64,000 bases of DNA from a virus (IMGVR_UViG_3300025887_000011:27808-91807); one strand, 5' to 3'; positions 8,673 through 48,458 are shown, counted from the first letter of the stretch. The notes: generated from the letters alone by a model not told the origin. Numbers and translations: made by a program.

Positions 8673-8676
8673 TTTA

Positions 8677-13864: not shown

Positions 13865-13891
13865 GATTTGATATTACGTAGAATAGGCATT

Positions 13892-16895: not shown

Positions 16896-17479
16896 AGTTT
16901 ATTGTAAATTTCTATATCTTTTTCGTAAAGAAACTTATAATCTTCGAATTTAACTTCTGAGATTTTATTGCCAACAGATTCGTTTTGATGATAAGCTTCA
17001 ACCTTTACGTCTAAGTATTCAGATAAGTTATCAAAAAGTTGATCGTCACACAAGAAGTCTTTATCGGTTATTTTTTTTTCTCCATCAAAAATAAATTCGT
17101 TTTGAGGACATCCATGTATAAAGTTACAACTTTGAATGTAATACTTGTTTCTTATTGAATTAAGGTAAGAATAATAAAAAAACAAATGTTCTGGGTTTCC
17201 TAAGTGCTTGGTAGCATAGGAAAGAGAAGAATAAAACCTTTCTTCTGGGTTTCTAATCGTAGAAAAAACTTTATAACCGTTATCTATAGCTGACTGTATA
17301 ACATGAAATTTAGAGTAGTGCATTGGCAGCATATGAGTTTTATCTATAGTCCCATCTTCGGTTGCCATATGAGTATCTATAAGATCTGGATCTATCTTCT
17401 TAAAAGATTTGTATATAGAAGAACCCCAATTCTTAGGGATATGTATATATAGGAATTTTAACTTGTGACTAACCAGCAT
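16883..17479 (-). CDS. Sulfotransferase (Sulfotransfer_2-like)
   Basis: 5'-PAPS motif YIHIPKNWGSS, 3'-PAPS motif IRNPEERFYS, C-terminal YEKD. Confidence 0.82.
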   Translation of the reverse strand: MLVSHKLKFLYIHIPKNWGSSIYKSFKKIDPDLIDTHMATEDGTIDKTHMLPMHYSKFHVIQSAIDNGYKVFSTIRNPEERFYSSLSYATKHLGNPEHLFFYYSYLNSIRNKYYIQSCNFIHGCPQNEFIFDGEKKITDKDFLCDDQLFDNLSEYLDVKVEAYHQNESVGNKISEVKFEDYKFLYEKDIEIYNKLCSK

Positions 17480-19218: not shown

Positions 19219-19251
19219 GAGGTATTATACCTCAAATGCTTTCGTCTTCAA
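19218..19251 (-). promoter_or_regulatory. Sigma70-type promoter TTGAAG-N16-TATAAT with the -10 inside a 17-bp palindrome
   Basis: -35 at 19251-19246, -10 at 19229-19224; TGAGGTAT-T-ATACCTCA at 19218-19234. Confidence 0.6.
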
Positions 19252-20107: not shown

Positions 20108-20116
20108 TGTGATAAA

Positions 20117-20127
20117 TTATTACACTA
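20117..20127 (-). promoter_or_regulatory. GTGTA late-promoter motif
   Basis: TAGTGTAATAA; GTGTA ends 13 nt before ATG 20107. Confidence 0.6.
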
Positions 20128-20148
20128 AAATTTTAAAATAATGAAACG

Positions 20149-26467: not shown

Positions 26468-29400
26468 TTAATTTCCATCTGTAGAAGGATAAAGCCTCCA
26501 AGGTAATACTGTCAAACCCTGGAATGTTGGACCGTAATTTCCTGTGTATTCATCTGTTACGTATAAATTGCCAGTAGGGCCATTTAAAAAAGCATTAGCT
26601 CCTATGTTGGGAGAATCAATATCAAGAAAAACATTCCTTATTTTTGAGCAGTTTTCATAAGCAGAAGCACCTATTGACATGTTTAATTCAAAATAATTAG
26701 CAAAAATAATGTCTCCAGTTATATTAGAACAACCTTTAAATGCATTATCTCCTATTTTAGATAAAGATGGGATATCTTCATAACTAAGTATTTGAGATAT
26801 ACCGCTACAGTTTCTGAACGCTGCGTTATCTATTACTTCTAAACTAGGACCAAGAGCTAAAAAAGGTCCAACTTGAGAACAACCATCAAAAGCTTGATTT
26901 GCTATTCCAGTGGTGCCAAAACCAAAGGCTAATGATCCAGATAAATTATCTAAACCAGCAAAAGCTCTGGTGCCAATAGAAATCAGACCTTCAGAAAGCA
27001 AACGTAATTGTCCTGAAAATCCAGAACATTCATAAAAAGATTCTTTTCCTATTCTTTGGATGTTTGGTGGTAAAGTTAGTCCTCCATTAAAACCAGTACA
27101 TCTTGAAAAACTATAATCATCTAAATATAGTAGGGTTCCTGGTAGTTCTAGCTTTCCAGTAAAATTATAATCATAGAATCCAGAAACACCAACCCCAGTA
27201 ACTCCTTCTTTAAAAGATAGAGTGCTTTGGCTGTCAAAGTTATATGTTTTATAGAATTCAAAAGAACTTTTTTGCACCGAAGACGAAGGACAGGAAGCTA
27301 ATACAAGGCCAGTAAAATAAGATTGGTCAAATACATTTATCCCGACATCTGTAGATGGGCTCATTTGCAAAAACCCACTAAAAGGACTATCTTGAAAAGC
27401 TGAATTTTCGATCTTTTGGACAGAACAACCTATTTTAGCGCTTCCCGATAATCCAGTACAACCTTTAAACGCAGCAAAACCAATGCCAGTGACTGAATTA
27501 GGAATGTTAATAGATCCTGTTAAGTTATATCCAGAAAAAGCATATTCATGCAAACCCGAAGCATTATTATTAATTATTAAGTTTAGATTAATATCTTTAA
27601 ACTCTTCATAGAATCCAGACTTAATCTCTGTTAATGATGAAGCTGTAAATAATCTTCCACCTTCAATATTTATTCCTGAAAAATTTGTTCCATAAAAAAC
27701 ATTTCTTCCTATTGATGTTCCGTCTTCTATATTCAATAACCCTGAAAGGCCAGAACAACCAGAAAATGCGAAGTTTCCTATTTTATTTAAATTGTCGCTA
27801 AATGTCAATCCTCCAGTTAAAGGCCAATTATCAAAAGATCTTGAATTTATGTTTTTAACGCTTTCAGGGAAACTAACAGAACTAGAGTTGCTATTTGATA
27901 AATAGTAGTCAAATTCATTGTTGCTTATGTTTTTAACCCCTTGAGACACTTTAAGGTTTGTAAAATCACATCCAGTAAAAGCTAATGGATGTATCAAACC
28001 GCTTCCAGATTGAGGCTCTAAACCTCCCTCCCATATTGCTGGGAAAGTTGTTAAAGTTTTTGCGTTTGAACAATTTCTAAAAGCTCCGCTTTCTATAGCG
28101 GAATCTCCAGAACCATAAATGAATTGAGCTCTTGATAAAGATATTTCTGAGAAACCACTACAATCATCAAATGCTAAACTTCTTATGCCAGTTAAGGATG
28201 TAGGTAAATCTAATTTACCAGTAAATTGCATTCCTGCAAAAGATCTTTTGTTAATTTGTTCGACCTTTGAAGGAGCTTTGAATGTTAAAATACTTTGCTC
28301 TGCATAATTAGAAGTTGTTTTTGTGTGTATATCTAACCCGTACCAACCGTATCCGAAATAACTAGTATTTGCATTCCGACCTGTAACAGAGTAAATAACA
28401 TTTGGAACTTCTAAGTTTTTAAAATCGTTGTTTTTAAAAGAGTCAGGACTATTAATAAATCTACTGGACTGACCATCCCTGCTTAAATATTGATATGAAG
28501 GCGGAACAGTTAATTTCCCATCAAAAGCATTTAAATCAAAAGCTAGATTAGAAATGGTTGAAATCCCTGTAGAGTTTAATTCTAGATCTCCAGTTAAATT
28601 ACAAAATCGAAACCCCTGACTCCCTACTGACTGCAGATTTTTGCTAAAAAATATTTTTTTCTGTTGTAAACTAGCGCCTCCAAATACACTTGTCGAAGCA
28701 GTCTTTAATTTAGGAAAGTGAAAATCATTTTGAATATCGTAACCTTTAATAAAACCACCTCTGAATGCAAGAGATCCAAGATTTTCCAGGTTGTTATCGA
28801 CAGGAAAAGTAAATTTCCCTTTTGGTGATTTATCTTGGTTATAATCCATTCCAAAAGCACTACTCCCAATGCTGCGTACACTCGCTGGTAGATAAAAGTC
28901 TCCAGTCATATAAGATAGATAGAACCTCGAGGTTATACTTGAGGTCGCGTAAAAAGCCAGATCCTCTATAGTTACAAGACCTTCATTAAGTTTTAAAGTA
29001 TGAATTCCTGTTGTCGGGCTGGCATTACTTGTAGATCTGAAAGACTGGTTAAAAGCATAAGGTTCTATACCAGTTATATTGGATGGTATTTCTAAAACTC
29101 CAGTTATGTAGTTATTAGCAAATCCATAAGTTGGGATTATTTGTAAACCAGTTCCAATTTCTAGGCTTCTAATATTATTATCTCTAAACCCACTTCCCCC
29201 CATAAATACTAATGAATCTGGTATTTTAAGTTCTCCAGTTATAGCCCATCTATAACATGATGCATTAGCTACATTTTTAACGCCCTCTTCTATATTTACA
29301 TATGGGAACGGCTTAGTAGTTTGTGATAGGCGTCTTCTAAACCATTGATAGTCATTTGTTCCATCAAAAGTTAACGTACAAGATTTTACTGTTAAACCAG

Positions 29401-32302
29401 TCAAACTAGAAGGGGGGAAAGAAGAATTTACTCCAGTATCAGCTATAACTCCGCTACCAGCAGACACCTTAGTAAAATTACAACCAGTAAAAGCTAAAGG
29501 GCCTATTTCAAGATCTCCGCAATTAAGTTCTATTTCTTCATCAAATGAAGAACACCCATTGAAAGCATTGTCTCCTATAACACTAACTGACTCTGGAATT
29601 ATCAACTTCCCCGTTAAACTAGAGCAATTCTGGAATGTGTTTTTTCCTATTCCTAGCAAACCGCTTTGAAAATTTAAATTTTTAAATCCAGTTGAATTAT
29701 AAAAAGCAAAATCACCAACCCCAGTTATTTGTTGCCCTATGTTTATAGAACCTGTCAAGCTACTGCAATTATAAAATGTTTTTTCTTTTATTACGTCTAT
29801 TGAATTACTTATAGAAAGTTGGCCGTCAAACCCATCACAATCCTGAAAAACACCAACCCCTAAACCAGTTATTTTAGACGTAATGTTTAAATCTCCTTCG
29901 AAGCTGTTGCATCCAGAAAAAGCATGATTACCAATTAAGCTAACGTTGTTTAAGTTTAAATTACCAGTAAAACTATAACCATCAAAAGCGTTATCTGCTA
30001 TGGTTTTAGTATCATCGCCTAAAGTTAAAGACGCAAATGAAGTTTTAAAAGCGTCAAATTGATTGTCATTTATTGTTTTTACTTTGCTTATGATTATATT
30101 TTTAAAATTATTATTACCAAAAGCATTTGTAGCAATAGTCTTATCTCCAATAATTTGTATTGAAGAGTCAAATCCAGAGCAATCAAAAAAAGCAGCGTCT
30201 TCTATTTCTTTTATGTAATCTGGAAATATAAGATCTCCAGAAAAACCAGCACAACCAGAGAAAACACCTGATTGTAATTTAGATAAACTTGTGCTAAATT
30301 TTAAACCAGTTCCTAAACTTTCACAACCAGCAAAAGAATAGCTTCCTAAACCAGTTATGCTATTAGGCAGTATTAAATTTCCAGTTATATTAGAGCATTC
30401 GTAAAAAGCTTTATTATCAATAATGCTAACTTCTTCATCAAAGAAAATAAAACCATTTATACCAGAGTTATTATTAAAAGCAGACTTGCCTATTCTGTTT
30501 AAGAAAACAGGAAAAACTAAAGATCCAGTGAATTGATAATTGTCGAATGCGTTATCATTTATGCCGCTAAGATAAGGTGACATAGTTAACAACAGCTTTG
30601 AATCAGAAAAATAATCATAACCACCGTCATCTACATAATCAATGAGGTCGTCAAATATTAATTCATTAAATTGACAACCAGAAAAAGCGTTTAAACCAAT
30701 ACTTGTTATTGTACTGTCTGATATTTTTATAGATTTCTTAAAATTAGAACAATTACCAAAAGCTTCTTGTCCTATATTTAAAACATTTCTTGGGATTTCG
30801 AGATCTCCATTTAAGCCAGTGCAATTAAAAAAAGCTTCTCTAGCTATTCCAGATATAGACTCACCAATATAAAGACCACCATCGAATCCAGAACAATTAT
30901 AAAAAGTTTCTGTTTTTACATCTTTAAGTAGATCATGTAGATAAAGATCTCCTTTAAAACCTGCACAATCTTTAAAAGCTGACCTAGATATATTTTCTGT
31001 AAAGTCTGGAATTCTTAAAGCTCCAGTTATATTGGAGCAACCAGAAAAAGCTTCTCTACCTATTGAGTTTGCTAAGGTTCCTATTCTTAATCTTGCAGCG
31101 TTTAAGTCACCGCTACTCCAATAAGAAGGTATATTTGCTTCGGTTGATCTTAACACTGCTCCATTAGAATCGTATACAGTAGAATCGAAAAATGGCGTAG
31201 TCCAAAAGTTAAAATCTTTCTTGTTGTTTATCGGAAATGAAAACGAAGATGAATATGTCATACTTTCGTTTTCTTTCATCGAATAAGAAAAACTCTCTAA
31301 TTGTAAGTTTGGAAACCTCAATATTGAAGCATAGTCAGATTCTAAATTCTCAGCTACTAAAGAGAAAGAATAGCGATCTTCGTCAGCCAGTAAACCAGAT
31401 ATAAATCCAGTTTGGTATTTTGATACGTTCGACTCAATATTTAAAGTGCCCTCTAAAGGAAATTTTATTTTTCTATCACGAATGTAGTCAGAACCTAAGC
31501 CTTCTAAGTTTACCCTGTTTATAGGTATAGTCATAGACATGCTTGTCACCCTATGGTCAGCACCATAAAGATCTTGGCCACCAATTTGGATATTAGCCAA
31601 CACCAAACTCAAACCGCAACTAGTAGCGTGGATATCTGGCTTTGTGAAGTCTAAATATCTTTCAGAAGCTTCGTCATAACCAGAAAGTTTTGTGCCAGAT
31701 ACTAGCAGTCTACCAACTCCATTGTCATTTCCAGATATTAGATTTATAGCTGGAGACTTTATATTACCAGTATAAATATCGCCCTGCATATTAGAGCATT
31801 TATAACTTGTTCTTACTTTTGGTATAGAACCTATCTCGAACGACAAGTTATAAGAGTTTAAGTATGAGTTCCCAAATGAAAATATTTCTCCGCTATTAGG
31901 ATTCTGTAAAGCATTAGAGTCAAAATAATCTATAGCATCAGACCCTTCATCTGGATGGTTATAGAAATAAAAATTATAAGACTTGTCTAATAATTGCTCT
32001 AAAAAACCAGTTGGCTTATAGTTTACACCAGTAACTATACCCAAGCCCATTAAGTTTTCATTAGGCATAAATGGATTATATAGATAATCTATAGTAAGAT
32101 CTATTTCTGGGTGTTTGTTGATGCTATTAAGTTGAAAATCTTTTGATCCAACAGCTCCAGCCTTTTCTCTTTGCATGGATACAGAAAAAGACGAGTTAGT
32201 AACCCCGCCAAACAAAACTCCAGACTCATCGTAATCTTTGAACGATGGAGACTCTCCTATTATTACTAAACTATTATTACTATTTAATCTTATTCTAGAC
32301 AT
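26468..32302 (-). CDS. Tail-tube-like domain (about 370 aa) fused to a long BspA/LRR_5 leucine-rich-repeat array; probable receptor-binding protein
   Basis: N-terminus homologous to the 47250/48501 proteins (GNSYLNSYNLSFEIGSIP...SN; R..LE.LGS...FP); dozens of IG..AF..C..(F/L)TG.L.IP repeats. Confidence 0.85.
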   Translation of the reverse strand: MSRIRLNSNNSLVIIGESPSFKDYDESGVLFGGVTNSSFSVSMQREKAGAVGSKDFQLNSINKHPEIDLTIDYLYNPFMPNENLMGLGIVTGVNYKPTGFLEQLLDKSYNFYFYNHPDEGSDAIDYFDSNALQNPNSGEIFSFGNSYLNSYNLSFEIGSIPKVRTSYKCSNMQGDIYTGNIKSPAINLISGNDNGVGRLLVSGTKLSGYDEASERYLDFTKPDIHATSCGLSLVLANIQIGGQDLYGADHRVTSMSMTIPINRVNLEGLGSDYIRDRKIKFPLEGTLNIESNVSKYQTGFISGLLADEDRYSFSLVAENLESDYASILRFPNLQLESFSYSMKENESMTYSSSFSFPINNKKDFNFWTTPFFDSTVYDSNGAVLRSTEANIPSYWSSGDLNAARLRIGTLANSIGREAFSGCSNITGALRIPDFTENISRSAFKDCAGFKGDLYLHDLLKDVKTETFYNCSGFDGGLYIGESISGIAREAFFNCTGLNGDLEIPRNVLNIGQEAFGNCSNFKKSIKISDSTITSIGLNAFSGCQFNELIFDDLIDYVDDGGYDYFSDSKLLLTMSPYLSGINDNAFDNYQFTGSLVFPVFLNRIGKSAFNNNSGINGFIFFDEEVSIIDNKAFYECSNITGNLILPNSITGLGSYSFAGCESLGTGLKFSTSLSKLQSGVFSGCAGFSGDLIFPDYIKEIEDAAFFDCSGFDSSIQIIGDKTIATNAFGNNNFKNIIISKVKTINDNQFDAFKTSFASLTLGDDTKTIADNAFDGYSFTGNLNLNNVSLIGNHAFSGCNSFEGDLNITSKITGLGVGVFQDCDGFDGQLSISNSIDVIKEKTFYNCSSLTGSINIGQQITGVGDFAFYNSTGFKNLNFQSGLLGIGKNTFQNCSSLTGKLIIPESVSVIGDNAFNGCSSFDEEIELNCGDLEIGPLAFTGCNFTKVSAGSGVIADTGVNSSFPPSSLTGLTVKSCTLTFDGTNDYQWFRRRLSQTTKPFPYVNIEEGVKNVANASCYRWAITGELKIPDSLVFMGGSGFRDNNIRSLEIGTGLQIIPTYGFANNYITGVLEIPSNITGIEPYAFNQSFRSTSNASPTTGIHTLKLNEGLVTIEDLAFYATSSITSRFYLSYMTGDFYLPASVRSIGSSAFGMDYNQDKSPKGKFTFPVDNNLENLGSLAFRGGFIKGYDIQNDFHFPKLKTASTSVFGGASLQQKKIFFSKNLQSVGSQGFRFCNLTGDLELNSTGISTISNLAFDLNAFDGKLTVPPSYQYLSRDGQSSRFINSPDSFKNNDFKNLEVPNVIYSVTGRNANTSYFGYGWYGLDIHTKTTSNYAEQSILTFKAPSKVEQINKRSFAGMQFTGKLDLPTSLTGIRSLAFDDCSGFSEISLSRAQFIYGSGDSAIESGAFRNCSNAKTLTTFPAIWEGGLEPQSGSGLIHPLAFTGCDFTNLKVSQGVKNISNNEFDYYLSNSNSSSVSFPESVKNINSRSFDNWPLTGGLTFSDNLNKIGNFAFSGCSGLSGLLNIEDGTSIGRNVFYGTNFSGINIEGGRLFTASSLTEIKSGFYEEFKDINLNLIINNNASGLHEYAFSGYNLTGSINIPNSVTGIGFAAFKGCTGLSGSAKIGCSVQKIENSAFQDSPFSGFLQMSPSTDVGINVFDQSYFTGLVLASCPSSSVQKSSFEFYKTYNFDSQSTLSFKEGVTGVGVSGFYDYNFTGKLELPGTLLYLDDYSFSRCTGFNGGLTLPPNIQRIGKESFYECSGFSGQLRLLSEGLISIGTRAFAGLDNLSGSLAFGFGTTGIANQAFDGCSQVGPFLALGPSLEVIDNAAFRNCSGISQILSYEDIPSLSKIGDNAFKGCSNITGDIIFANYFELNMSIGASAYENCSKIRNVFLDIDSPNIGANAFLNGPTGNLYVTDEYTGNYGPTFQGLTVLPWRLYPSTDGN

Positions 32303-32304: not shown

Positions 32305-33336
32305 TTACCAGGGATTAGTATCTTCTTCAAAGCCTCCATTATCATATCCTCCAAAAAACTCTAGAGCCACGTTCTGTATTGTAGTTGGTATTTCTCCACC
32401 AACAGGAACTTCTCTTGGAATAACACCAAGAGGGTCCTCTTTAAACACAACCTGTAAATCATGACTTTCTGGGCTTTTCCAAACATGATTCCAAGACTGA
32501 CATATATAAACTTTCGGTCTATTATAAACAGTGGGTATATGATGTCTAAATCTTCTATAGCCACCTTTTAATTCTAAAAAATGAAGCATTGTTTTCAACT
32601 GCTTTTTAGATATAGATGTAAAATTATAACTGATTGGAACTAGAGATATATTTTTAGAATCCTTTATTCTTTGTCCGTATGTTCCATCAAATCTACTGAC
32701 TGAGAATTGCACCTGGTTTGTTGTCCCTACATCAGGTTGCCAATAAAAAGATTGACTCCAAGCTGTGTTTATGCCTGTTGGAGAGTTTTCAGAAACGGAA
32801 GAATGTTCACCTGTGCAATAATAAAAGTTGTTCCATTTTTCTTCTGAGTTATCAAAATAAACAATGTCATCTAGTTCGTAATCTAAATCTTCAGACCATT
32901 CTTTAAATTTATATTCTGTAAAATTAGTATTTTTCCAATTTAAAAGGTTTGGAGCTTCATCTACAGAAACAGTAGTGTTGACTCTATAACTGTTTTCTGA
33001 TAAATGGCTTATTGAATAACCATCACAATAACCACTTAGGTCTTTATAAATTAAATTGTCAGTTTTAAATACGAAGCTATTTTGCCCACTTAAAGCCTCT
33101 AAGTCGTTTGCTATTTTTTGAGCGCCTTCTTGATTAACATCATAAGAAACAGAGAAATCTACAACCAAACTATTAACACTTGCAGGGATAAGTGTAAAGT
33201 AGTTATCACTAAGCTTTAAATTTTCATTTTTAGTGGAGAAGCTAGCTTGCAAACCATAACTGGGACAAAAACCAGTAAGATCTACATAGTCTATATCTTT
33301 GAAATTCCTTGTCCTGTCGTAATAATACTCTTCCAT
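32305..33336 (-). CDS. Distal tail protein (lambda gpM-like), tandem duplicated, with central CBM5/12-like insert
   Basis: RFDGTYGQR...N...FL..KGG..F...P....C..W (C-half) and similar N-half; W....Y..DDIV.F...YYC...H.S...P...W insert; located downstream of the TMP. Confidence 0.6.
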   Translation of the reverse strand: MEEYYYDRTRNFKDIDYVDLTGFCPSYGLQASFSTKNENLKLSDNYFTLIPASVNSLVVDFSVSYDVNQEGAQKIANDLEALSGQNSFVFKTDNLIYKDLSGYCDGYSISHLSENSYRVNTTVSVDEAPNLLNWKNTNFTEYKFKEWSEDLDYELDDIVYFDNSEEKWNNFYYCTGEHSSVSENSPTGINTAWSQSFYWQPDVGTTNQVQFSVSRFDGTYGQRIKDSKNISLVPISYNFTSISKKQLKTMLHFLELKGGYRRFRHHIPTVYNRPKVYICQSWNHVWKSPESHDLQVVFKEDPLGVIPREVPVGGEIPTTIQNVALEFFGGYDNGGFEEDTNPW

Positions 33337-34130
33337 TACCCGTGTCCTACGTAATTAAGATCAAGTTTTAAACTTCCGTCTTGAGAAATCCTCAAGGTTT
33401 CATTTATCAAACTTGCGTTTGGTATGTTTACACTTTGTAGTTCTTTTCCGTCTCTACCATTAACAATTATAGATAAGTTTTTATTTTCCTTTAATTCTAA
33501 AAAATTATAAGAATTTTGTAAAAAAGCATCATCAACGTCTATAGAAGCATTAGCTGTGTAAAATATTGGGGCTATTGTTTCTACAGCAAAGGGGTCTTTT
33601 TGACCTATTCCATAGATTGGTTTTCTGTTTATATTTATAGCGTAGTTAAACCCCACAACTCTATTTGTTGTTGAATTATCACATGTTATAGCTATAGATC
33701 CTTGGCTTGGAATATCTATTTTTGGATGTCTTCTTACAGTTCTTTTTCCACCTGCATCAACACCGCTTTTCATTTCATCTGTTATTATAAAATTAGAAGC
33801 AGATTTTGGAACAGCTCCGACTGCACAACTTAAAGAATAATTATTTAGGTAACCTTTTTCAAATCCATAATAAGAATCATTATAAAAAAGACTTGCAGCT
33901 ATCGGTTCAGATCCAGTATAATTTAAGACTGGGTCGTTATATATTAAATTTCTATTTAAAGTTAAGCCTTGTTGTATAGGCCCACTGTTTACTGAGAAAC
34001 CTCTTCTGCTGCCAAGTATATTCTTTACATCTGATGAAGATTTATAAGAAAACTCTAAAGAATTTATACCAGACAGTTCATAATTATCTGTGAAAAGCCT
34101 AGCTTCGTGATTAAATATTCCGTTAAACAT
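33336..34130 (-). CDS. Tail tube paralogue (tube initiator/hub candidate)
   Basis: GYLNNYSLSCAVGAVP and RVVGFNYAININRKPIYGIG match the tube proteins; immediately after the TMP. Confidence 0.65.
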   Translation of the reverse strand: MFNGIFNHEARLFTDNYELSGINSLEFSYKSSSDVKNILGSRRGFSVNSGPIQQGLTLNRNLIYNDPVLNYTGSEPIAASLFYNDSYYGFEKGYLNNYSLSCAVGAVPKSASNFIITDEMKSGVDAGGKRTVRRHPKIDIPSQGSIAITCDNSTTNRVVGFNYAININRKPIYGIGQKDPFAVETIAPIFYTANASIDVDDAFLQNSYNFLELKENKNLSIIVNGRDGKELQSVNIPNASLINETLRISQDGSLKLDLNYVGHG

Positions 34131-37100
34131 TATACTCCTCTTCTAAGTGTTCCTCCAAGTCTCTTCTCTTCATTTATAACCTTAAGAACCTGATCTCTTA
34201 TAAGTTTTGCAATTTTAATGTTGTCATCTTCTTCTTGAGATCCAGTACTTTTTTCTTCGCTATTAGAACCATCACTATTCACCGTTATGGTTATCGCCCC
34301 AGTTGATTCTTTAGTAGCTTTTATTAACTCGTCTAATCTATCTATAACTTCTTCTTGGTTTTCTGGTTCTACTGAAGAAGAATCTCCAGCGTTAAGTTTT
34401 TCTAAGGAAGATTGACCTAATCGACTTGCCGCAGAACTATTTACCACAAACTCTCCACCAGAAAGCATTGTTGGCACTGTATCAATTCCAGGAGCATCTT
34501 GAACTCTTCCTCCAGTAGCAAACCCTTTAGGAGGAAGAAGTCCTCCATTTCCCGATGCCGCAAGACTAAAGAAGTAATCCTGAATCTTTTGGTATAAACT
34601 TTTTTCTATGTCTGAGTTCCTAGAAGGCAAAGTAGATTCAAGAGCTGCGCCTTCACCATAAACAGGGCTTGAAACTTTACCTGCGCTATATTTTCTTATT
34701 GAGTTATCGCTTGAAGCTTTTAAAGCATCTATACTAAGCTGGTCAACTTGAGAGGCTTTTATCGAAGACAATATAGCTTGATTTCTGCTTGTTGATAAAG
34801 TTTTATCTCCAGATATTTGAGATCCTCTTCCGTCTATAATAGCTTGTACAGCTGGGTTTTTGGCAGTAAATCCATATTTTCCAGAATTTGATGTAAACTC
34901 TCCAGATTTGAAAAAGTCTATAGCAGCTGGAGATGTTGAATTTTTTAAGAAATAATTACCTAACCCCTGCTGATTAACAGTCCCTCTATTATTAAAAAAG
35001 TTTGTTAAGCCTCCGTATGTTTGTTCTCCACCGCCATTTAAAGTTCCTCCACCAAAAGCTCCTCTTACTCCAGTCCAAAATTTACTACCTGCAGATAGTG
35101 TTTCCCCAGAGGCAGCTGCTTGTTGTGTAGCTCCTGATATTGCATTCTGAGCACCTGTTGCTGCAACATTTACACCATAGCTAATTACTGCACTTGCTAC
35201 TGTGGATATTATAGCTTTTTTGAATTCTTCTTTTGCTCTTTTATTTTCTGCATCTATCTGAGCTCTTAAATCGTCATCTCTAATAGCTAAATCAAAAGCT
35301 TGTCTTTTTGCGTCTTGAGTAGCTAGTTGAATAGGAGTTCCTGCTTTTCTTCCAAAGTTTGTTAACCTAAGGCTTTCTGGTTCAAGATCAATAAATGCTG
35401 CATTACTTTTTTGATCGCCGCCAATAAAATCAGTAGCTCCATTTGTAAACCCTTGAGTCGCAAAGTTCCTCAAAGCTTCCGCTCCGCTTATTTTTCCAGA
35501 TCCTCTTAATCCTGGAGCGAAATAATTTCCAGTTCCTGTTTGAGTTGGTATTTTATCACGATCAACAATACCACCTTCAGCAAATTGACCGATGTTTCCA
35601 CTGTTTATATCATCAAGAAGTTTCGTGCCGTATTTTTCAACAGACTTTTTCTTAACGACATACTCTCCAGACATTAACAAAGCTGGAACATCGTCCTTGC
35701 TTCCAGAACCTCCGCTCACCGAACCTCCAGAGCTATACCCACCTGCACTGAAAGCATTTACGAAAGCATTTCCTTGGCCTCCTCCTCCTCCTATAATATT
35801 GGCTATTCCACCAATTGCATTCTTTAAATTTGTTCTTGTAAGCTCTTTCAAGAAGCTTGTGGCAGCATCTCTTAATGTTTCTTTTAAATCTTTTCCTTCT
35901 ACAATGGCCGCTTCTATTCCATTTACAATTGCATCTGTAAAATCAACAGCTCCTTTTACTAGCGTATTATTAATATTTTGTACAGCTTCTGGTCCGTCTA
36001 CAGAAAGTTCATCTAAGATTCTTTCTGTAACTTTTTCTGGTTTATTCTTCTGAGCTGCGATTTGTTTTCTCAACTCTTGCAACTCATCTCGACCTTCCTT
36101 AGTTAAAGTCCCCTTACTTTCTTGTTCTGTAAGAGCTTTCGACTTTTGCAACAAATCAAATATTAATAGTCTATCATCGTATTCTCTTTGAAGCTTTCTT
36201 CTTTGAGCCGTGCTTGTTGACTCTATTAAGTCTAATTCAAGTTGATAGTAAGCTCCTAACCTTTGTTGATCAAGCTGTGTTTGTATATCAACATCACTAA
36301 GCCCCTCGTTTCTTCTTGTGATATCTTCTGTCTCGGCCGCTCCAGAAAATTCGGTCCTAGGTTGTATTGGGGTTTGGGTTTCAGAACCGAAACCAAAGAA
36401 GCTTTTTATTTTATTGAAAGCTTTTTTAATAAAGTCTAAGATACCAGAGAAACTTTTTAATGATTCTATTACTGTATTGGTTTCTGTATTTTGGTTTCGT
36501 TGAGCTTCTAATGCTGTTCTCTGGGTCTCTAGTTTTTCTTTTTCTACTTTTGCTGCTTTTTTCTGATCGTCTGTAGATTCAGTATCATTTATAACAGAAT
36601 CTAATTGAGTTATTCTTGTGGTTAAGTTTTCAGAAGCTACATTCAAGCGAGAAAAACCGTCAACAACGCCGCTTACAAAAGAACCTATACTACTAAATTG
36701 TCTAGACGACTGTGTTATAGGGTCTTGTCTATCAGGGCTTGAGATTCCCGCTTGTGTATTCTGAGGATTAGCGTTAGGTCCGAATGTAGAAAGAATCTGT
36801 TTTGTTTTTTCCAACTCTATTCTTAATTTTTCTTGAAGTACGATTTCTTCCTGCCTAAGCTTGTTTAATAACTTTAATCTTTCCCCTTTTTCTGATTCTG
36901 CCCCAATAATATCTACGCCATCACCAGCATTTGGGTTTGCCCTAAACACTTCGCCGCTTCTTAAGTTTGTTTCCGCAGGAGTTGGGAAATCTCCAAGCCT
37001 TCCAGCATCAAAATTATTTCTAAAATTGGAAGCACTGCTATCTTCTGTCACTGATTCAATAGCCGAGCTAAAACCCTGCACTGCTACCGCTGACTGAGCT

Positions 37101-40100
37101 AGCCTTTGACTTAAATCTGCTAAATCTTTTTTAGCTTTAACTTCATTGCCTCCTTCAGCCAAGAAAAGTTTTTGTCTTGCTTCTTCAATAGTAATAGTCC
37201 CAGCTATAGCTTTTTTATATAATTCTACAGTAGCGTTTAACGCTTCAAACTCTTTTGCATTTTCTGATATTTTTTTATTTATAGATTCTAAATCTATAGT
37301 TCTTGTAGTAGCGCCAAACTGAGAATTATCAACTTTTCGGCTTGAAATCTTATTTCTTTCTTTTATCAAGTCAAGCCCTCGTCCTCTAATTTTTTCTAAT
37401 TCTAGTGCTGGAGTTTGAGCTTCTTGTTTTAAAAGTTTTCTTTTTTCTTTTTCTTCTGGGCTATTCTCTTTAGCTTCTGTTTCTGCTTTCTTAAGATACT
37501 CAAGTAATTTATTTATAGCCGTACTAAATGTAGAGGCGTTATTTGTTTGTTGGTTTAGTATTTCTCTATTCTTGTTTTCGGTATCTTCAAGGAATTTTTG
37601 CCTAGCTGCAGTTTGCTTAGTTAATTCATTATTAAGCAATTCAGACAAAGCTTGTATTTCCCCTGGTCCTTGTCTTACTTGACCATCTGCATCAGGACGA
37701 GTGAGATTGTTGATGGCCTCTCTTATTCCTTTTTCGTTTAATATCCCAGTATCTCTAGCTGTTTGTAAAAAATCTTTTTGTATTTTTTCTAAACGGTCAA
37801 ATCTTTTTATATTTATATTGTTTTCTTCTTTTCTTCTTGCGTTTGTTGACTTAACGACATCCAAAACAGAAGGGGCTTGCCCTCCTCCAAAAATCCTAGA
37901 TGTGGATTTTTCGCTTCTGTCTATAGCTATGTTTGAAGCTTCTAACCTTGATTTGGTTATTTGGTTTTGTGTGTTAAGGCTTTGTTGAAGTATTCTTTCT
38001 TCTTCTTTGATTATATCTACCCTGTCTTTATATACAGCATTCTGAGCTTGAGCGACTTCTTCGGCAGCTCTTTGAATTTGCAATGTTTTTTGTTGCTGCT
38101 CTATTTGAGCTTTTAAATTATCAACAATTTCTTTTGATAATGTTTCTTGTCCAGTAAATGCAAGTAGAGCGGCTTCTAAAGGTTTAGCAAAATCATCAGA
38201 AAATCCAGTCTCCGAAAGATCTAGTTTGGCAATTTCGTCTATAGTAGCCTTAATAACAAGAAACCTATCCTGACCTATCTTCTTATCTTGATCACCCTCT
38301 AATAACTCTTTTACTTTTTTATTATCAAGTATAGTTTTTGAAATTAAAGCGTTTATTTCTTGAGCGCCTTCTCTTTGAGCTTTTATAGACCTTAATTGCA
38401 AATCAAGTTCTAGCTGTTTGTTTTTAGATGTGTTTAAAGATATTTTTTGTAACTCTAGTTCAGCTTCTTTTCTTGTTTTTACGCTAGATATTATTTTGCT
38501 TTCAGCCAAAGCACCTTTGATCTGGATATTGAGTATTTCGGCTCTAAGCTTTACAATATCTTCTAGTTCTTCTTTTTCTGCTTTGACTATATCAAAAACT
38601 TGCTTGCTTAAATCTCTTTGCTGTTTAACAAGCTCTTTTATCTTCTTGTCGTCACCAGTAAGCTGGGCTTTAAGTAGGTCAGCGCTAGCAGCTTCTAGCT
38701 TCTTTATTTCTTCTGAAGCAACGCCACCTTTTACTAAATCGACAAGTTCTTTTACTTGAGATGCATCTGTTAAATCTGCTGAAGTAAGTTTAACATCATC
38801 AACTAAGTTGAGAATACCTCTTGTAAAGTTTTCTTGGCTTGTCTCTACAAGACTTTTTATAGCACCATCATCTATATCTAAGTTTGATGTATTTATGCCA
38901 GATATATCTAGAGCTCCAGAACCTCTTTGCGCTTTTCTAAATAGCTCTGCTCTAAGCTTTTCAGGGTCTTCTATGTTTTTTAGTTTCGGGTCTTTTAACT
39001 CAGCTTCTCTTCTGCTTACTTGAGTTAAAATTTGAGTACCAGTTTGGGCAAAAGTGTTTTGGCCACCTTGGCCTTTAAGTAGATTTTGGTCTAAACTGTC
39101 GCCAAACTTTTCTAAGCTTTTAGCGGCTTTTTCAGCTGGGCTATCAATGACCCCAAGTTTTTCTAGAAGTTTTGTGCCTAATTTAGTAAAAAATCCTCCT
39201 AAATCAAAACCAAATAATTTAAGCGCCGAGTTGACCGCTTGAAAGCCAACTACAAGAGGCCCTATAAGAGGAACAAGTCTAGAAAACAAACCTACTGTTT
39301 TTCCTACAAAAGGTCCAGCTTTACCAATTAAGGAAAAAACTTTTGCAATTCCTTTTGAAGATGTTTTTGTAAAAGCATCTGCACCCGATCCTCTTCTTAA
39401 TGAAGCTGCAGCGCCTTTTCTTCCAAATAGTTCTACGGTTTTCCCAAAGCTTTTTCCCTGTTCATTTCCAAACCTTTTGATAAAATCTGTGCTTGATTCT
39501 CCCTTTTCTTTACCTAGAGATTTTTGATCTAACCCTAGAGACTGTATTCCTTGAATGAGAAGAACAGTTCTTGCCGCACCAGCTCCAGCTTCAGCGAGTT
39601 GTTTACCAGCGCCTTCAGCAGTTTCGGCGAAAGCTTGAAGTGTGCTCGCTGTTGTGAATGCTGCACTGCCAAGAACTAAAAACGATTGTAAGCTTTTTTC
39701 TTGAGTTTTTTCTGCTGCACCTTCACCGCCTCTTTGAACTAAACGTTCTTTTGCTGCTGTTTTTAAAGATTCTTTATTGGCTTTCCCTCCAGCTTTACTA
39801 AGGTTTTTTATTTCTGGACTGCTTCCATTAAGATTTTTTACTAACTCATCTATTTTTTCGTTAGCTTCTTTTTGGGTTATTACTTTATCTTTAGTATCTT
39901 TTACTATAACATCTAAAGACTTATTGAAATCTCCCAGTGTTCCTTTTAAGGAATCAAGTTCTTTTTGTATTCCTTGAGCTTCAATACCCCCACCTTGACC
40001 TCTTGATTCCAGTGTTGATTGAGCTTGAATTAATTCTAATGGATTTCTGGTTCCAGTTTTAGCTGCAAAATTTGGTATGTAACCTAAAGATGCGTTTCTT

Positions 40101-43100
40101 GGTATTCTCCCAGTAGGTTCATCTCTGGTATTGGTTACAGCAAGGCCATTTGGGTTTTTGCTGTTTCTTAATTTGCCGTTTTGATTTATTCTTATCTGGT
40201 TAACAGGAACTCCTGCTTGCTGCTCTCTTTCGATAGCTTCATCAATAGGACTTTTTCTGTTTGCAAAATTGGGGATATATCCTCCAGCAGAACTTTTCTT
40301 AGTCTTTTTTTGATCAGGATTTAATATATTTTTCCTAACAAAAGATAAGGCTTTAGTTTTTGTATCTTCATCATTAAATACTTTTTTAGCAACATCTCTT
40401 ACTTGCTTGCTTCCTTTGAAGTTTGTTTCCCCACCCCTCTTGCTTTCTCCTTTTAGGGCTTTGATTCCAAAGATATCCTGTATTGCCTCTGAATTTTGAA
40501 AGTCAAACGGTCTGCCTTGTTCTGATTGGTCAAAAACTTTAGAAATATCAGAGAAGCTATTCAAAGCCACCTTACTTGCAGCTTCAAAAAGATTTCCTTC
40601 TGTTGCGGATGGAAGTATTTGTTTTCCTTTTAATTCTTTCTGTAATGCTTGGCTAAACTGGCCGCCGCTTGCTGGATCAAAAAATCCCCCATATAAATCG
40701 CCAGCTAAATTAACTATACCTTCAGCAAAGAATGAGTTTATTCCTTTAGTTAAACCTTCGATATCTTGACCTCCAGGAGTATTTGTAGCATAAAGATTTG
40801 TTAGGTTTATTTTTTTCTTCAACTGCTCTTCGCTCAGTGTCTTGTCGTCCTTAAACTGACTTATGTCTGCAAGTTTTATAGGAGGGGTATCAAAATCAGC
40901 AACATTTCTAGGTCCTTCGAATCTTGGTGATATTAAAGCAATTCCACCGAGTTTTTTGGTGTCTATAGAATATGTTTTTGCACTATCAAATTCAGCCTTT
41001 CCGCTTTTGCTGGCAGCATTAGCATTTCTTGCGACTTTGAATTTGCCTGTAGTTTGGTTAAATAACTGAGAGGTGTTAAATTCTTTTGTGTTTGTGCCGT
41101 CGTTAAATTCATAAGCTCGTCGACCTGGAATCTTTTTTACAAACGTGCTCTTTTCAAACTCTTCTAAGTTTGTTGCTCCTGTTTTCGCTATTGCTTGAGC
41201 AACGCCGAATCCACCAGCATAGTTGGGTATATAACCTCTAGCTGCATTTAATTGTTTTGCGCCTTCTGGAACACCAAATTTTTCAACCATATCGCGGTTG
41301 AATATTGCGTCTCCTCCTCCAGCATAATCACGAACAATATACTCGCTATCGTTAGCGACCATTGTTCCAGTTTTACCTGCTCCAAATTTAAAATCGTCTA
41401 TTATTACCGTCTTTGCGGAATTAGGAGCTTTTCCTACTCCCTTTGATATATCTGACTTCTCTTTATTTATTGGAAGGAATCCATCTGCAGCGTTGGCTAC
41501 ATAACCACCAGCACCAGTAGCGCCAGTAGATACTGTTTTTGTTTGAGCATTTCTAAAGGATTTGGTATTGCCTAAGACGGTCTTAGATATATTAGTTGAT
41601 ATTTTATTTACCTTCTCAAGACTAGCAAGCTGCTCTTTAACAGCTAGAGTAATAAGTTCCGCTTGTTTAAGTCTTTTCTCTTCAGAAGTTAAAGAAGAAT
41701 TCTCTATTTTAAGTATAGCATTTCTAATATCTTTATCTTGAAGTAACGTAGATACTATATTTTTTTGAGTGTTTTCTAATTCTTTGGCAAATTTATTAAG
41801 ACCAAGAAATGTTTTAAAAGAGTCTATTCCAAATGAAGCTAATTTTTTGCTTAAGACAAAAATAACAGCAACAACTGCCGCAAGGCCAATTTTTATAGCC
41901 GAATCAGCAAACCCTTTAAACAATGAAGATGCAAGATCACTACCTGATATTCTTTCGCCTAATCCTCTTAGTGCATCTATAAAACCATTTAACCCAGAAA
42001 GTAACTCTTTAAATGGGTCTATTATACCAAGCTCTCCAAATTGACTGGCTAACTCTTCTATATTAACTTTTGTAAGATTTATTCCAGCGGCTAATGTTTG
42101 GTTTAAAATTATATTCTTTTTATATGCTTCGTCTGAAGCATTAGCGAATGATTCTGTAGCTGCAACAGCAACTGAAGACTGACTATTATAATCAGCTAGA
42201 GCAGCAAGCAAAGGTGCTATCTGGAAACCTCCACCAATTTTCTCAGTAATCGATCTTACTTCTACATCACTTAAACCATCTAATTGTTTAGCAAGACCAG
42301 CAATTAGCTGTGTCGCTGGTTTTATCTTTCCTTGTAAATCAGTAACTTCAACACCAACACTTCTTAACAATTCTAAGTTATCTGCTCGTCCAATACGAGT
42401 AAATATAGTTTTAAATGAGTTTCCGATGACAGCTCCACCACGGGCAGTTCTTTGCTGGACAGCAGTAATAATACCTCCAAGCTCATCGATGCTAACTCCA
42501 GCCTGTTCAGCTACAGAAGCTGAACGTTTAAATCCTTCAATAAGATCTCTCTCTGAAACGGCAAATTTGTTCGCGGCGTTACTTATTTTATTTAAAACAT
42601 CACCCGTACTCAGACCAGCCTTAGAAAAACTGTTAACGGCAGCTGTTAATCCAGAAACGGCATCAGCAGCACTAAGACCAGAAAGTCTAGATAGTATTAA
42701 AGAATCGTTAAGCCTCTTTACTACATCTTCAGTTCCTAAACCCTGTCTTGAAAGTTCTAAAGCAGCATTAGATACTACATCAAAAGATTGCCCAGTTTCC
42801 TTAGCTATTTGGAATATAGATCCTTTAAGGCTATCTAATCCTTCTGCGTTAGTATTTAGGATCGAGTTTATTTTGGCTAGGTTAGCCTCTACTTCAATAG
42901 TAACATTAACTAGACCTTTAAAAGACTGAACCAATCCATTGATTATACCAACAGAAGCACCAAAGGCAAGAACTCGAGCATTTGAAGCTTCAATCGATTT
43001 AGTAAACTCATCTGCTTGACCAGTAATTCTTCCAAGAGGTTGAGATAGTGCATTTATATCTTTTGCACTAGAACCTAGATCAACTTTGAAGTTTCTCCCT

Positions 43101-43189
43101 GCTTTTTTAGCGACATCGCTAAACTGTCTTTCGAGTTGAGTTGCGTTCTGTAAAGACGCTTTTACTGATACATTAATCGATTCTGGCAT
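34130..43189 (-). CDS. Tape measure protein (3019 aa)
   Basis: TP901-type N-terminal block (A..TGQ...AALEL.RQG, G..IGNSFKTIF.R), long helical Ala/Lys/Glu-rich body, C-terminal GG.V...D.VP.LL..GE.VV motifs. Confidence 0.95.
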   Translation of the reverse strand: MPESINVSVKASLQNATQLERQFSDVAKKAGRNFKVDLGSSAKDINALSQPLGRITGQADEFTKSIEASNARVLAFGASVGIINGLVQSFKGLVNVTIEVEANLAKINSILNTNAEGLDSLKGSIFQIAKETGQSFDVVSNAALELSRQGLGTEDVVKRLNDSLILSRLSGLSAADAVSGLTAAVNSFSKAGLSTGDVLNKISNAANKFAVSERDLIEGFKRSASVAEQAGVSIDELGGIITAVQQRTARGGAVIGNSFKTIFTRIGRADNLELLRSVGVEVTDLQGKIKPATQLIAGLAKQLDGLSDVEVRSITEKIGGGFQIAPLLAALADYNSQSSVAVAATESFANASDEAYKKNIILNQTLAAGINLTKVNIEELASQFGELGIIDPFKELLSGLNGFIDALRGLGERISGSDLASSLFKGFADSAIKIGLAAVVAVIFVLSKKLASFGIDSFKTFLGLNKFAKELENTQKNIVSTLLQDKDIRNAILKIENSSLTSEEKRLKQAELITLAVKEQLASLEKVNKISTNISKTVLGNTKSFRNAQTKTVSTGATGAGGYVANAADGFLPINKEKSDISKGVGKAPNSAKTVIIDDFKFGAGKTGTMVANDSEYIVRDYAGGGDAIFNRDMVEKFGVPEGAKQLNAARGYIPNYAGGFGVAQAIAKTGATNLEEFEKSTFVKKIPGRRAYEFNDGTNTKEFNTSQLFNQTTGKFKVARNANAASKSGKAEFDSAKTYSIDTKKLGGIALISPRFEGPRNVADFDTPPIKLADISQFKDDKTLSEEQLKKKINLTNLYATNTPGGQDIEGLTKGINSFFAEGIVNLAGDLYGGFFDPASGGQFSQALQKELKGKQILPSATEGNLFEAASKVALNSFSDISKVFDQSEQGRPFDFQNSEAIQDIFGIKALKGESKRGGETNFKGSKQVRDVAKKVFNDEDTKTKALSFVRKNILNPDQKKTKKSSAGGYIPNFANRKSPIDEAIEREQQAGVPVNQIRINQNGKLRNSKNPNGLAVTNTRDEPTGRIPRNASLGYIPNFAAKTGTRNPLELIQAQSTLESRGQGGGIEAQGIQKELDSLKGTLGDFNKSLDVIVKDTKDKVITQKEANEKIDELVKNLNGSSPEIKNLSKAGGKANKESLKTAAKERLVQRGGEGAAEKTQEKSLQSFLVLGSAAFTTASTLQAFAETAEGAGKQLAEAGAGAARTVLLIQGIQSLGLDQKSLGKEKGESSTDFIKRFGNEQGKSFGKTVELFGRKGAAASLRRGSGADAFTKTSSKGIAKVFSLIGKAGPFVGKTVGLFSRLVPLIGPLVVGFQAVNSALKLFGFDLGGFFTKLGTKLLEKLGVIDSPAEKAAKSLEKFGDSLDQNLLKGQGGQNTFAQTGTQILTQVSRREAELKDPKLKNIEDPEKLRAELFRKAQRGSGALDISGINTSNLDIDDGAIKSLVETSQENFTRGILNLVDDVKLTSADLTDASQVKELVDLVKGGVASEEIKKLEAASADLLKAQLTGDDKKIKELVKQQRDLSKQVFDIVKAEKEELEDIVKLRAEILNIQIKGALAESKIISSVKTRKEAELELQKISLNTSKNKQLELDLQLRSIKAQREGAQEINALISKTILDNKKVKELLEGDQDKKIGQDRFLVIKATIDEIAKLDLSETGFSDDFAKPLEAALLAFTGQETLSKEIVDNLKAQIEQQQKTLQIQRAAEEVAQAQNAVYKDRVDIIKEEERILQQSLNTQNQITKSRLEASNIAIDRSEKSTSRIFGGGQAPSVLDVVKSTNARRKEENNINIKRFDRLEKIQKDFLQTARDTGILNEKGIREAINNLTRPDADGQVRQGPGEIQALSELLNNELTKQTAARQKFLEDTENKNREILNQQTNNASTFSTAINKLLEYLKKAETEAKENSPEEKEKRKLLKQEAQTPALELEKIRGRGLDLIKERNKISSRKVDNSQFGATTRTIDLESINKKISENAKEFEALNATVELYKKAIAGTITIEEARQKLFLAEGGNEVKAKKDLADLSQRLAQSAVAVQGFSSAIESVTEDSSASNFRNNFDAGRLGDFPTPAETNLRSGEVFRANPNAGDGVDIIGAESEKGERLKLLNKLRQEEIVLQEKLRIELEKTKQILSTFGPNANPQNTQAGISSPDRQDPITQSSRQFSSIGSFVSGVVDGFSRLNVASENLTTRITQLDSVINDTESTDDQKKAAKVEKEKLETQRTALEAQRNQNTETNTVIESLKSFSGILDFIKKAFNKIKSFFGFGSETQTPIQPRTEFSGAAETEDITRRNEGLSDVDIQTQLDQQRLGAYYQLELDLIESTSTAQRRKLQREYDDRLLIFDLLQKSKALTEQESKGTLTKEGRDELQELRKQIAAQKNKPEKVTERILDELSVDGPEAVQNINNTLVKGAVDFTDAIVNGIEAAIVEGKDLKETLRDAATSFLKELTRTNLKNAIGGIANIIGGGGGQGNAFVNAFSAGGYSSGGSVSGGSGSKDDVPALLMSGEYVVKKKSVEKYGTKLLDDINSGNIGQFAEGGIVDRDKIPTQTGTGNYFAPGLRGSGKISGAEALRNFATQGFTNGATDFIGGDQKSNAAFIDLEPESLRLTNFGRKAGTPIQLATQDAKRQAFDLAIRDDDLRAQIDAENKRAKEEFKKAIISTVASAVISYGVNVAATGAQNAISGATQQAAASGETLSAGSKFWTGVRGAFGGGTLNGGGEQTYGGLTNFFNNRGTVNQQGLGNYFLKNSTSPAAIDFFKSGEFTSNSGKYGFTAKNPAVQAIIDGRGSQISGDKTLSTSRNQAILSSIKASQVDQLSIDALKASSDNSIRKYSAGKVSSPVYGEGAALESTLPSRNSDIEKSLYQKIQDYFFSLAASGNGGLLPPKGFATGGRVQDAPGIDTVPTMLSGGEFVVNSSAASRLGQSSLEKLNAGDSSSVEPENQEEVIDRLDELIKATKESTGAITITVNSDGSNSEEKSTGSQEEDDNIKIAKLIRDQVLKVINEEKRLGGTLRRGV

Positions 43190-47249: not shown

Positions 47250-48458
47250 ATGGCACAATCACGAAATAGAGTAATTTATCAATCGGAAGCGCTTTTTGGA
47301 AGTAAGGAATATAATTCCATCTCGAAAAAAGATCACACGCAGCTTTTCCGCGTACAAAGCGCGAACTACGGGTTCACAATTAACCGTCAAGACGTAAACC
47401 AGTATGGAAACTTGGCAAGAATCGATTCTTTGATTCTTGAGCCACCTACTGTTAACTTTGATATTAGTTATTATCCCACAAACGGTTATAACGAAAGAGC
47501 CCTAGGCTTTTCTGTTACAAACACAACTAACCCAGCAGAAGCTCAGTTTTCTTCTGGAGCACTTGCTGGAGGAAGCGGTCAAAACTTTTACGTTTTAACT
47601 GTCGAAGATGGATTCGATGCAAACCTCGATAGGGCTAGCGGTTCTACAGAACACCAAATCGTAGGAATCGGAAACGCCTTCCTTACAGACTACACCCTCG
47701 ATCTTGCAGTTGGATCTCTTCCTACTGCTACTGTTGCCTTCGAAGCTTCAAACATCATCTCTGACACTACTGTTACTGGTAATGACGCTTTGGGGACATT
47801 CGGTTATAGTGGTATTTCTAGTCCTGCTGTCGAGCCTGTCCAAGGAGTTCCTCTTAGCGATACAAACGCAGCTTTCGAAAATATTAAGATTCCTTATGCA
47901 ACTGGAAACTCTTGGTCTGGAGATAACGGAGTTTATACTTCAGACGCAGAAGACAAACTTTCAGCTCTTCGCCCAGGAGATATCGGACTTGATCTTACAT
48001 CGTTTAATGGCATTGCCTTAAGTACCATTGGAGGAACTAGTGGAATTCACGTTCAAAGCGCTTCTCTTTCATTGCCTCTTTCCAGAACACCAATTGAAAG
48101 ACTTGGTTCTAAATTCCCGTTTGCACGGGTTGTAGACTTCCCAGTTAACGCATCTTTAACAGTTAACGCTTTCGTTAACACTCAAGTTTCCCAAAACCTT
48201 GCAGATCTAATTTCTGGTTGCGGTGGACAAGGACTTAAAGAGGTTAGTGTTAGTCTCAAAGAGTGCGGAGGCACAACAGACGGACTAAAAATAACTCTTA
48301 AAGGATGTACTCTTGATTCTGAAAGCTTCTCATCAAGCATCGGATCAAACAAGAGTGTCGACTTAACTTTCTCAACTCAAATTGGAGGAATTAGAGATCT
48401 TGAAAAAGGAGTGTTCTTCAGCGGCAGCAACAATACACCCCTTCCCTGGGAATATTAA
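47250..48458 (+). CDS. Major tail tube protein A
   Basis: Gly/Ser/Thr-rich beta protein with high-expression codon usage; internal two-fold repeat RVQSA...R...G / HVQSA...R...LG. Confidence 0.75.
   Translation: MAQSRNRVIYQSEALFGSKEYNSISKKDHTQLFRVQSANYGFTINRQDVNQYGNLARIDSLILEPPTVNFDISYYPTNGYNERALGFSVTNTTNPAEAQFSSGALAGGSGQNFYVLTVEDGFDANLDRASGSTEHQIVGIGNAFLTDYTLDLAVGSLPTATVAFEASNIISDTTVTGNDALGTFGYSGISSPAVEPVQGVPLSDTNAAFENIKIPYATGNSWSGDNGVYTSDAEDKLSALRPGDIGLDLTSFNGIALSTIGGTSGIHVQSASLSLPLSRTPIERLGSKFPFARVVDFPVNASLTVNAFVNTQVSQNLADLISGCGGQGLKEVSVSLKECGGTTDGLKITLKGCTLDSESFSSSIGSNKSVDLTFSTQIGGIRDLEKGVFFSGSNNTPLPWEY

Follow-up and report, generated by a model that had tools for sequence, protein, structure and literature searches.

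A tail-tube-like domain joined to a giant BspA-type leucine-rich repeat solenoid in the tail-tip gene module of an uncultured siphophage

Domain architecture of the target protein

The stretch IMGVR_UViG_3300025887_000011:27808-91807 (64,000 nucleotides, hereafter the window) is the final 64 kb of one phage-like contig of 91,807 bp, which derives from an uncultured, long-tailed lambda/T5-like siphophage with a genome of about 92 kb. On its minus strand, positions 26468..32302 hold an open reading frame (ORF) of 1,944 aa (P0001, hereafter the target), made of a tandem tube domain, a linker and a solenoid of LRR_5 leucine-rich repeats (LRR). A preliminary description of this DNA had reported a tube-like N-domain fused to an LRR array, and we recovered the ORF at the same coordinates and on that strand. 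The first tube domain covers residues 1-~209 (31676..32302) and the second residues ~217-372 (31187..31654), followed by a linker and LRR N-cap at residues ~373-403 (31094..31186) and by the BspA-type LRR_5 solenoid at residues 404-1921 (26540..31093), all of them on the minus strand. Within the solenoid, the irregular and fastest-evolving middle portion (residues ~925-1330; 28313..29530, minus strand) is a candidate ligand-binding region, as judged from regional identities, substitutions and an AlphaFold2 (AF2) model. The tube-LRR fusion is not an assembly artefact, as it is present in 14 or more independent protein clusters of ENA, JGI, Logan and NCBI.

The N-domain (residues 1-400) was compared by phmmer with all ORFs of the window, and matched the tube genes at 48501..49643 (plus strand; E 7.4e-15, aligned 58-348) and 47250..48458 (plus strand; E 6.4e-12), with a weak match to p264 (33336..34130, minus strand; E 1e-3). 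The identity to the two tube genes is only about 20%, a level at which the earlier wording, that the first ~370 residues align motif by motif with the major tube proteins, is a fair one. The first ~400 residues gave no Pfam match and no PHROG match above threshold, and searches of the PDB by phmmer or profile returned nothing meaningful for the N-domain sequence.

An AF2 model of the N-domain, built from a 57-sequence alignment, had a predicted local distance difference test (pLDDT) value of 85.8 and a predicted template modelling (pTM) value of 0.87. The best Foldseek matches included the SH-Ab15497 major tail protein (MTP; E 1.5e-15), T5 p140 (E 5.9e-14), T5 pb6 (E ~1e-11) and the P74-26 tail tube protein (TTP; E 1.7e-11), with DT57C also among them. 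In VIA, the SH-Ab15497 MTP (8xan_A) aligned with Z 21.9 and a root-mean-square deviation of 3.3 over 292 aligned positions, followed by T5 pb6 (7qg9_A, Z 21.0), P74-26 TTP (8ed0_A, Z 20.6) and T5 p140 (9ioz_A, Z 17.3). The tandem TTPs (T5 pb6, P74-26 and SH-Ab15497) align across model residues 3-383 with Z 20-22, and each half of the N-domain is matched by single-domain tube proteins, residues 1-~178/209 with Z about 8 and residues 217-372 with Z 7-8.6. According to the model, the N-domain is a tandem double tail-tube domain of the T5 pb6/p140/P74-26 type, and the tube fold, which the preliminary description had named beforehand as one of two points on which it could be refuted, is borne out by these values. 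The tandem type forms trimeric pseudo-hexameric rings, and by homology and fold the N-domain would assemble likewise; a two-copy complex prediction of residues 1-372 (score 0.31, mark 0.42) gave no verdict and counts neither for nor against such assembly. Model residues 3-383 are aligned with the tube part of pb6 (residues 1-375), and the LRR array therefore begins at the place of the C-terminal Ig decoration of pb6. The AF2 confidence of residues 371-390 is low (pLDDT 50-57), as expected of a linker.

Beyond the linker, LRR_5 (PF13306, BspA-type) is the sole Pfam family in the target (E 1.6e-136; 448.6 bits vs a cut-off of 27.7; 13 stretches), and a hidden Markov model (HMM) derived from the repeats themselves spans residues 404-1921. 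The dozens of LRR_5 repeats noticed at first sight amount to roughly 60 repeats of ~24 aa, and the DNA has a period of 72 nt (24 aa). The repeats are only 60-70% identical at the DNA level, which argues that the array is old and was not recently expanded; with that identity and no tandem array, neither a recent repeat expansion nor a mechanism like that of diversity-generating retroelements is supported in the LRR. The matches of the repeat HMM become weaker and irregular in about 925-1330, where irregular inserts had been described. The irregularity stands, but these are not foreign domains: residues 900-1350, modelled by AF2 with a pLDDT of 83, keep the fold of a BspA-type LRR solenoid, and the only significant structural matches of this model are the bacterial BspA-type LRR surface proteins 4gt6, 4cp6 (PcpA), 4fs7 and 4h09 (Foldseek E 1e-6 to 6e-6 for 4gt6, 4cp6 and 4fs7). 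Given that this portion models as LRR, the C-terminal ~1,520 aa are one solenoid with irregular repeats and not a string of different domains. The unannotated phrog_35892 (1,181 positions) matches both the target LRR (E 4e-54) and the T5 pb6 Ig decoration domain (E 1.5e-7), and therefore proteins combining LRR and Ig tail decorations already lie uncharacterised in cultured-phage databases.

Variable divergence along the protein

We compared the target, region by region, with six homologues of equal architecture. The identity is 65-71% in the tube domain, 54-61% in residues 371-930, reaches its minimum of 28-30% in the middle LRR (residues 931-1330) and is 40-47% in residues 1331-1944. Between the target and the 97%-identical P0002, 27 of the 62 substitutions fall within residues 953-1326, which make up 19% of the length. 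A conserved anchor joined to a fastest-evolving mid-solenoid is the pattern expected for a specificity region, and a ligand role of the middle repeats is a candidate one on this sequence evidence.

Tail-tip module and remaining tail genes

The minus-strand gene order is two small genes, the tape measure protein (TMP), p264, a 343-aa gpM-like protein and the target, which is the third gene after TMP. The TMP (34130..43189, minus strand; 3,019 aa) matches PHROG TMP families with E down to 5e-43, and its length argues for a very long tail. The TMP has 2,100-2,700 aa in most relatives vs 3,019 aa here, and the L005/L006 locus has only 1,025 aa at the TMP position (L005:5934-9011) and no p264 gene. 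The 264-aa p264, directly after TMP at 33336..34130, belongs to the tube family in a shortened form, as its alignment matched the tube-family alignment in hhalign with a probability of 98.4 and E 5.5e-15; it also matches phrog_290, a minor tail protein family.

The gpM-like protein, directly upstream of the target (32305..33336, minus strand), matches Pfam Phage_min_tail (E 1.4e-15, two stretches) and phrog_14, with a weak PDB profile match to lambda gpM (8iyk_M). In lambda, gpM is the distal tail protein (Dit), whose tube-like ring lies between the tube and the hub (PMC10721106). At 343 aa, the gpM-like Dit is three times as long as lambda gpM, and Pfam and PHROG each give two stretches in it; it may be a tandem duplicate that assembles as a trimeric pseudo-hexamer like the tube proteins, although the hhalign comparison of its two halves is weak (E 0.007, probability 5%) and the duplication is indicated mainly by the two Pfam stretches. 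Two nt separate this gene from the target ATG, a gap that points to translational coupling of the target to a Dit-like gene within the tail operon. The coupling, the tube fold and the conserved synteny all speak against the possibility that the target is not a virion component and acts, for example, on the host surface during infection. We consider that idea the least probable of all those weighed here.

Dit and hub proteins contain tube-like domains, often with binding modules, and the target gene lies downstream of TMP, so that it could be asked whether the target is itself the distal tail protein or the hub that terminates the tube, either as an 'evolved Dit' or as a Tal with a receptor-binding extension. 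However, the gene just before the target already encodes a gpM-like Dit, Phage_min_tail is not matched by the target itself, and gpL-like and gpJ-like hub proteins are found elsewhere in the genome. The remainder of the lambda-like tip is encoded outside the window, at genome positions 10990-21323 on the plus strand (L002/L003). Besides a 137-aa gene, this region encodes a gpJ-like central fibre of 1,564 aa (phrog_31, 1.6e-104), a gpL-like protein (Phage_tail_L, 1.5e-46) and three gpI-like paralogues, which measure 433-499 aa and carry additional C-terminal portions. A long distance separates these gpL/gpI/gpJ tip genes from TMP and Dit, which are encoded on the opposite strand. Also, the top structural rows for the N-domain in Foldseek and VIA are tube proteins and T5 p140, none of them titled hub or Tal, although such an absence from the top rows does not exclude the hub family. 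As the gpL-gpI-gpJ module sits elsewhere, we set aside a hub or Tal identity, and a terminating Dit or hub is, overall, very improbable. With the gpM-like Dit and gpL/gpI/gpJ encoded separately, the target is better seen as neither hub nor Dit but as one more protein of the tip module that has a tube fold.

The two tube paralogues of the window, both putative major tube proteins, are adjacent on the plus strand, at 47250..48458 (402 aa, GC 0.423) and 48501..49643 (380 aa, GC 0.432). Both of these tandem-domain proteins have a raised, capsid-like GC (capsid gene, 0.465), and the GC of the target ORF is 0.34, like that of minor tail genes. As an indirect proxy, GC suggests that the two paralogues are abundant proteins and the target a minor one. 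It also suggests that the tube may consist of two proteins, or that one paralogue makes a special section of it, both being abundant. Four small LRR_5 proteins (210-397 aa) are encoded outside the window, at genome positions 2222-6494 on the minus strand (L002), beside a DUF4376 tail-fibre-like protein of 188 aa, with a sulfotransferase and a Phage_cement_2-like protein nearby.

Relatives and the adhesin slot

An exhaustive HMMER search yielded 414 representatives of N-domain relatives, many of them stand-alone proteins of 360-400 aa and others extended up to 3,938 aa. Members of the family match phrog_290 and phrog_10528; phrog_290 was considered as the T5 p140 family and rejected, as T5 p140 itself hits phrog_3889. 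Among 50,697 phage records searched by tblastn, none matched the N-domain, the gpM-like protein or the 380-aa tube paralogue, and a search with TerL matched only ~25%-identical Firmicute phages, which indicates that the phage has no cultured relative. GTDB genomes scanned with the family alignment gave no match and, therefore, no host clue. One homologue (P0008, 64% identity in the N-domain) is named a leucine-rich repeat protein in its public record, which belongs to a 'Candidatus Lokiarchaeota archaeon' metagenome-assembled genome (MAG); the phage synteny makes it likely that a viral contig was placed in the bin of an archaeal genome.

In IMG/VR, 172 stretches encode relatives, of which we fetched and compared 80 loci. 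In those long enough to show it, the order TMP, p264, gpM-like gene, orthologue of the target N-domain, divergent five-gene cluster and ribonucleotide reductase is kept. Most loci encode the orthologue by itself, as a protein of 358-403 aa (usually ~361 aa), which argues for an independent structural role. Fusions within the window's clade are found in L004, L005/L006 (2,072 aa) and L008, and L007 has a short one (525 aa) that includes roughly a single LRR_5 unit. Across relatives, the gene that follows the orthologue is a variable cassette: it can encode a Laminin_G_3 lectin of ~220-250 aa, proteins of 243-896 aa with a common N-terminus and differing distal parts, or combinations of He_PIG, Cadherin and LRR_5, of FG-GAP and LRR_5, a Malectin or an LRR_8 protein. 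L013 and L009 have split versions of the gene, cut between tube and LRR, in which the second protein opens with a portion homologous to the target linker and LRR N-cap (BLASTP E 6e-9 and 1e-7, respectively). L009 also has, at 3835-9036, a 1,733-aa LRR_5 array fused to the p264 orthologue and not to the N-domain orthologue. The variability among relatives that the preliminary description had proposed to look for is thereby seen twice, in this swapping of adhesin modules and in the gradient of identity along the target.

C-terminal extensions of more than 100 aa occur in 56 of the 196 members of the family tree, across several clades. The L013 locus also encodes (8734-12003, plus strand) a 1,089-aa protein of the major-tube clade in which the tube domain is fused to Laminin_G_3 and FG-GAP repeats, and the fusion of adhesins to tube domains is therefore recurrent. 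Such extensions would also suit a sub-stoichiometric decorated tube subunit, scattered along the very long tail among the major tube proteins and making the whole tail sticky, in the manner of SPP1 gp17.1* or of lambda gpV and T5 pb6 with their Ig decorations, for which one can further invoke the closeness of the fold to bona fide major tube proteins (Z 20-22) and an LRR that starts exactly at the pb6 decoration point. However, the target belongs to a conserved and separate orthologous group in the TMP-Dit tip module, mostly undecorated, and a plain decorated variant would need no conserved undecorated orthologue at that place. In the family tree the two tube genes of the window sit in a clade distant from the target, with which they share ~20% identity, and the GC of the target is that of a minor protein. 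Since the tip module has a conserved and usually undecorated orthologue, at a large distance from the clade of the major tube proteins, we rank the scattered subunit below a ring at the tail tip and consider it unlikely, if the most serious of the alternatives.

A putative tail-tip ring with LRR arms

The reading that we favour, with little more than even confidence, is that the target is a low-copy tail protein forming a trimeric tube-fold ring next to the distal tail protein, with three LRR adhesion arms, in a p140-like manner. By homology, residues 1-~372 would trimerise into a pseudo-sixfold (C3) ring coaxial with the tube. The ring would occupy a unique place beside the gpM-like Dit ring, as p140 does in T5, and this place is the likely one because the gene lies in the TMP-p264-Dit module and not with the major-tube pair. 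The C-terminus of the fold would be at the ring periphery, where pb6 has its Ig domain and where p140 touches the fibre-anchoring collar, and from there a short flexible linker would lead into the ~1,520-aa BspA-type solenoid. The virion would thus bear three monomeric LRR arms, whose length, from the general geometry of LRRs, would be tens of nm. They would bind host-surface structures in an initial adsorption, probably a reversible one, and their specificity would lie mainly in the middle repeats, which evolve fast. The final receptor engagement would be left to the gpJ-like central fibre. The preliminary description had gone as far as a specialised tip ring whose LRR is the receptor-binding device. 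The tube fold, the tip-module gene, the minor-protein GC, the adhesin swapping and the T5 p140 precedent all agree with the ring and its arms, but 'the' device is an overstatement: as the genome encodes a gpJ-like fibre, three gpI paralogues, four small LRR_5 proteins and a DUF4376 protein, the LRR arms are more likely one adhesion device among several.

The same ring and arms could also serve a different end, if the LRR tethers the virion to other surfaces (particles, exopolymers, mucus-like matrices or non-host cells) or scaffolds another virion protein. BspA-type LRRs are general protein and surface adhesins according to the Pfam LRR_5 description, the top structural matches of the array are bacterial cell-surface LRR proteins whose ligand is unknown, and the gpJ-like central fibre is free to serve the true receptor. 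However, the variable slot of relatives has lectin-type modules, similar to receptor-binding proteins and typical of host recognition, and the divergence gradient resembles that of host-range determinants. Both are compatible with non-host ligands too, and we hold this use of the arms to be rather improbable next to the binding of host-surface structures.

Several points weigh against a host-binding ring at the tip. The ring position, the presence of the target in virions and its ligand are inferred. The fold is slightly nearer to full tube proteins (Z 21) than to p140 (Z 17.3) and does not, by itself, imply a tip ring. The gene order is unlike that of T5, where p140 adjoins pb6 and precedes TMP, and there is no sequence-level link to p140 (phrog_3889 vs phrog_290). 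GC stands only indirectly for protein abundance, the searches gave neither a cultured relative nor a GTDB match, and the genome has several other candidate receptor binders.

A broader and more tentative proposal, which we regard as possible although it falls short of an even chance, concerns the whole, widespread lineage of these uncultured and apparently marine siphophages. The tube-fold rings of the tip (the N-domain orthologue and p264) could be a universal docking or fusion platform for monomeric adhesins, namely LRR solenoids, ConA-like lectins, malectin, FG-GAP and Ig/cadherin arrays; in the clade of the window, a single polypeptide would unite this platform with an LRR arm of ~170 kDa, and the arm would be the main host-range determinant. 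If this is true, a C3 tube ring that bears three monomeric solenoids as arms would differ in kind from trimeric fibres or spikes.

Accounts of how phages recognise their hosts nearly always centre on trimeric fibres, spikes or small baseplate lectin heads. The target, as a putative tube-axis ring protein joined to one of the largest LRR solenoids seen on a virus, would be an unusual adhesion design, and in many relatives the same slot holds exchangeable lectin or LRR modules, in fused as well as in split form. Tube proteins with decorations, evolved Dits and the p140 ring are already known, but a full-text literature search returned no case of ~1,550 aa of BspA-type LRR joined to a tube-fold protein of the tip module and no lineage-wide variable adhesin slot behind such a protein. 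If the favoured reading holds, BspA-type LRRs would be phage adhesion modules, and it would be interesting to mine their fast-evolving middle repeats for host-range prediction in uncultured phages.

Comparison with known systems

In regards to T5, the p140 trimer forms a single pseudo-hexameric ring between the last pb6 ring and the Dit, and its C-terminus touches the p132 collar that carries the L-shaped fibres; the authors regarded p140 together with p132 as a landmark of T5-like phages only (PMC10038345). Like the target, p140 (7qg9_G / 9ioz_A) is a tandem tube-domain protein distinct from the major tube protein. However, p140 is decoration-less and holds its fibres via a separate p132 collar and the trimeric pb1, whereas the appendage of the target is fused and would be monomeric. 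The p140 gene stands beside pb6 and before TMP, whereas the target gene is the third after TMP, and p140 belongs to phrog_3889, whereas the target family touches phrog_290, with no relation at the sequence level. Should a tip ring with LRR arms be confirmed, the principle of T5 p140, a dedicated tube-like ring that anchors fibres, would reach beyond T5-like phages, and the target would represent a covalent, collar-less answer to the fibre-anchoring problem.

T5 pb6, P74-26 TTP and SH-Ab15497 MTP share with the target the succession of tube domain 1, tube domain 2 and C-terminal decoration, and they are its best fold matches (Z 20-22 over ~300 residues). They are, however, major many-copy proteins, trimeric, with a decoration that is absent or an Ig of at most ~90 aa, whereas the target is encoded by a minor tip-module gene and carries ~1,550 aa of LRR. 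SPP1 gp17.1* and lambda gpV likewise resemble the target in having a tube domain followed by a C-terminal, surface-exposed domain of adhesion type, but they have single tube domains, form hexamers and bear small FN3 or Ig domains that come from the major tube gene itself.

The BspA-type LRR surface proteins (4gt6, 4cp6 PcpA, 4fs7 and 4h09) belong to the same LRR_5 repeat family and have the same solenoid fold as the target array. They are bacterial proteins of ~400 aa, in contrast to the roughly 60 repeats fused here to a phage tube domain. Finally, in the evolved Dits of Gram-positive siphophages, as would be the case for the target, a tip ring protein on the tube axis also carries binding modules. 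There the ring is the hexameric Dit with inserted carbohydrate-binding modules, whereas in the present phage a gpM-like Dit is encoded separately and it is another putative ring protein that bears, at its terminus, the LRR solenoid.

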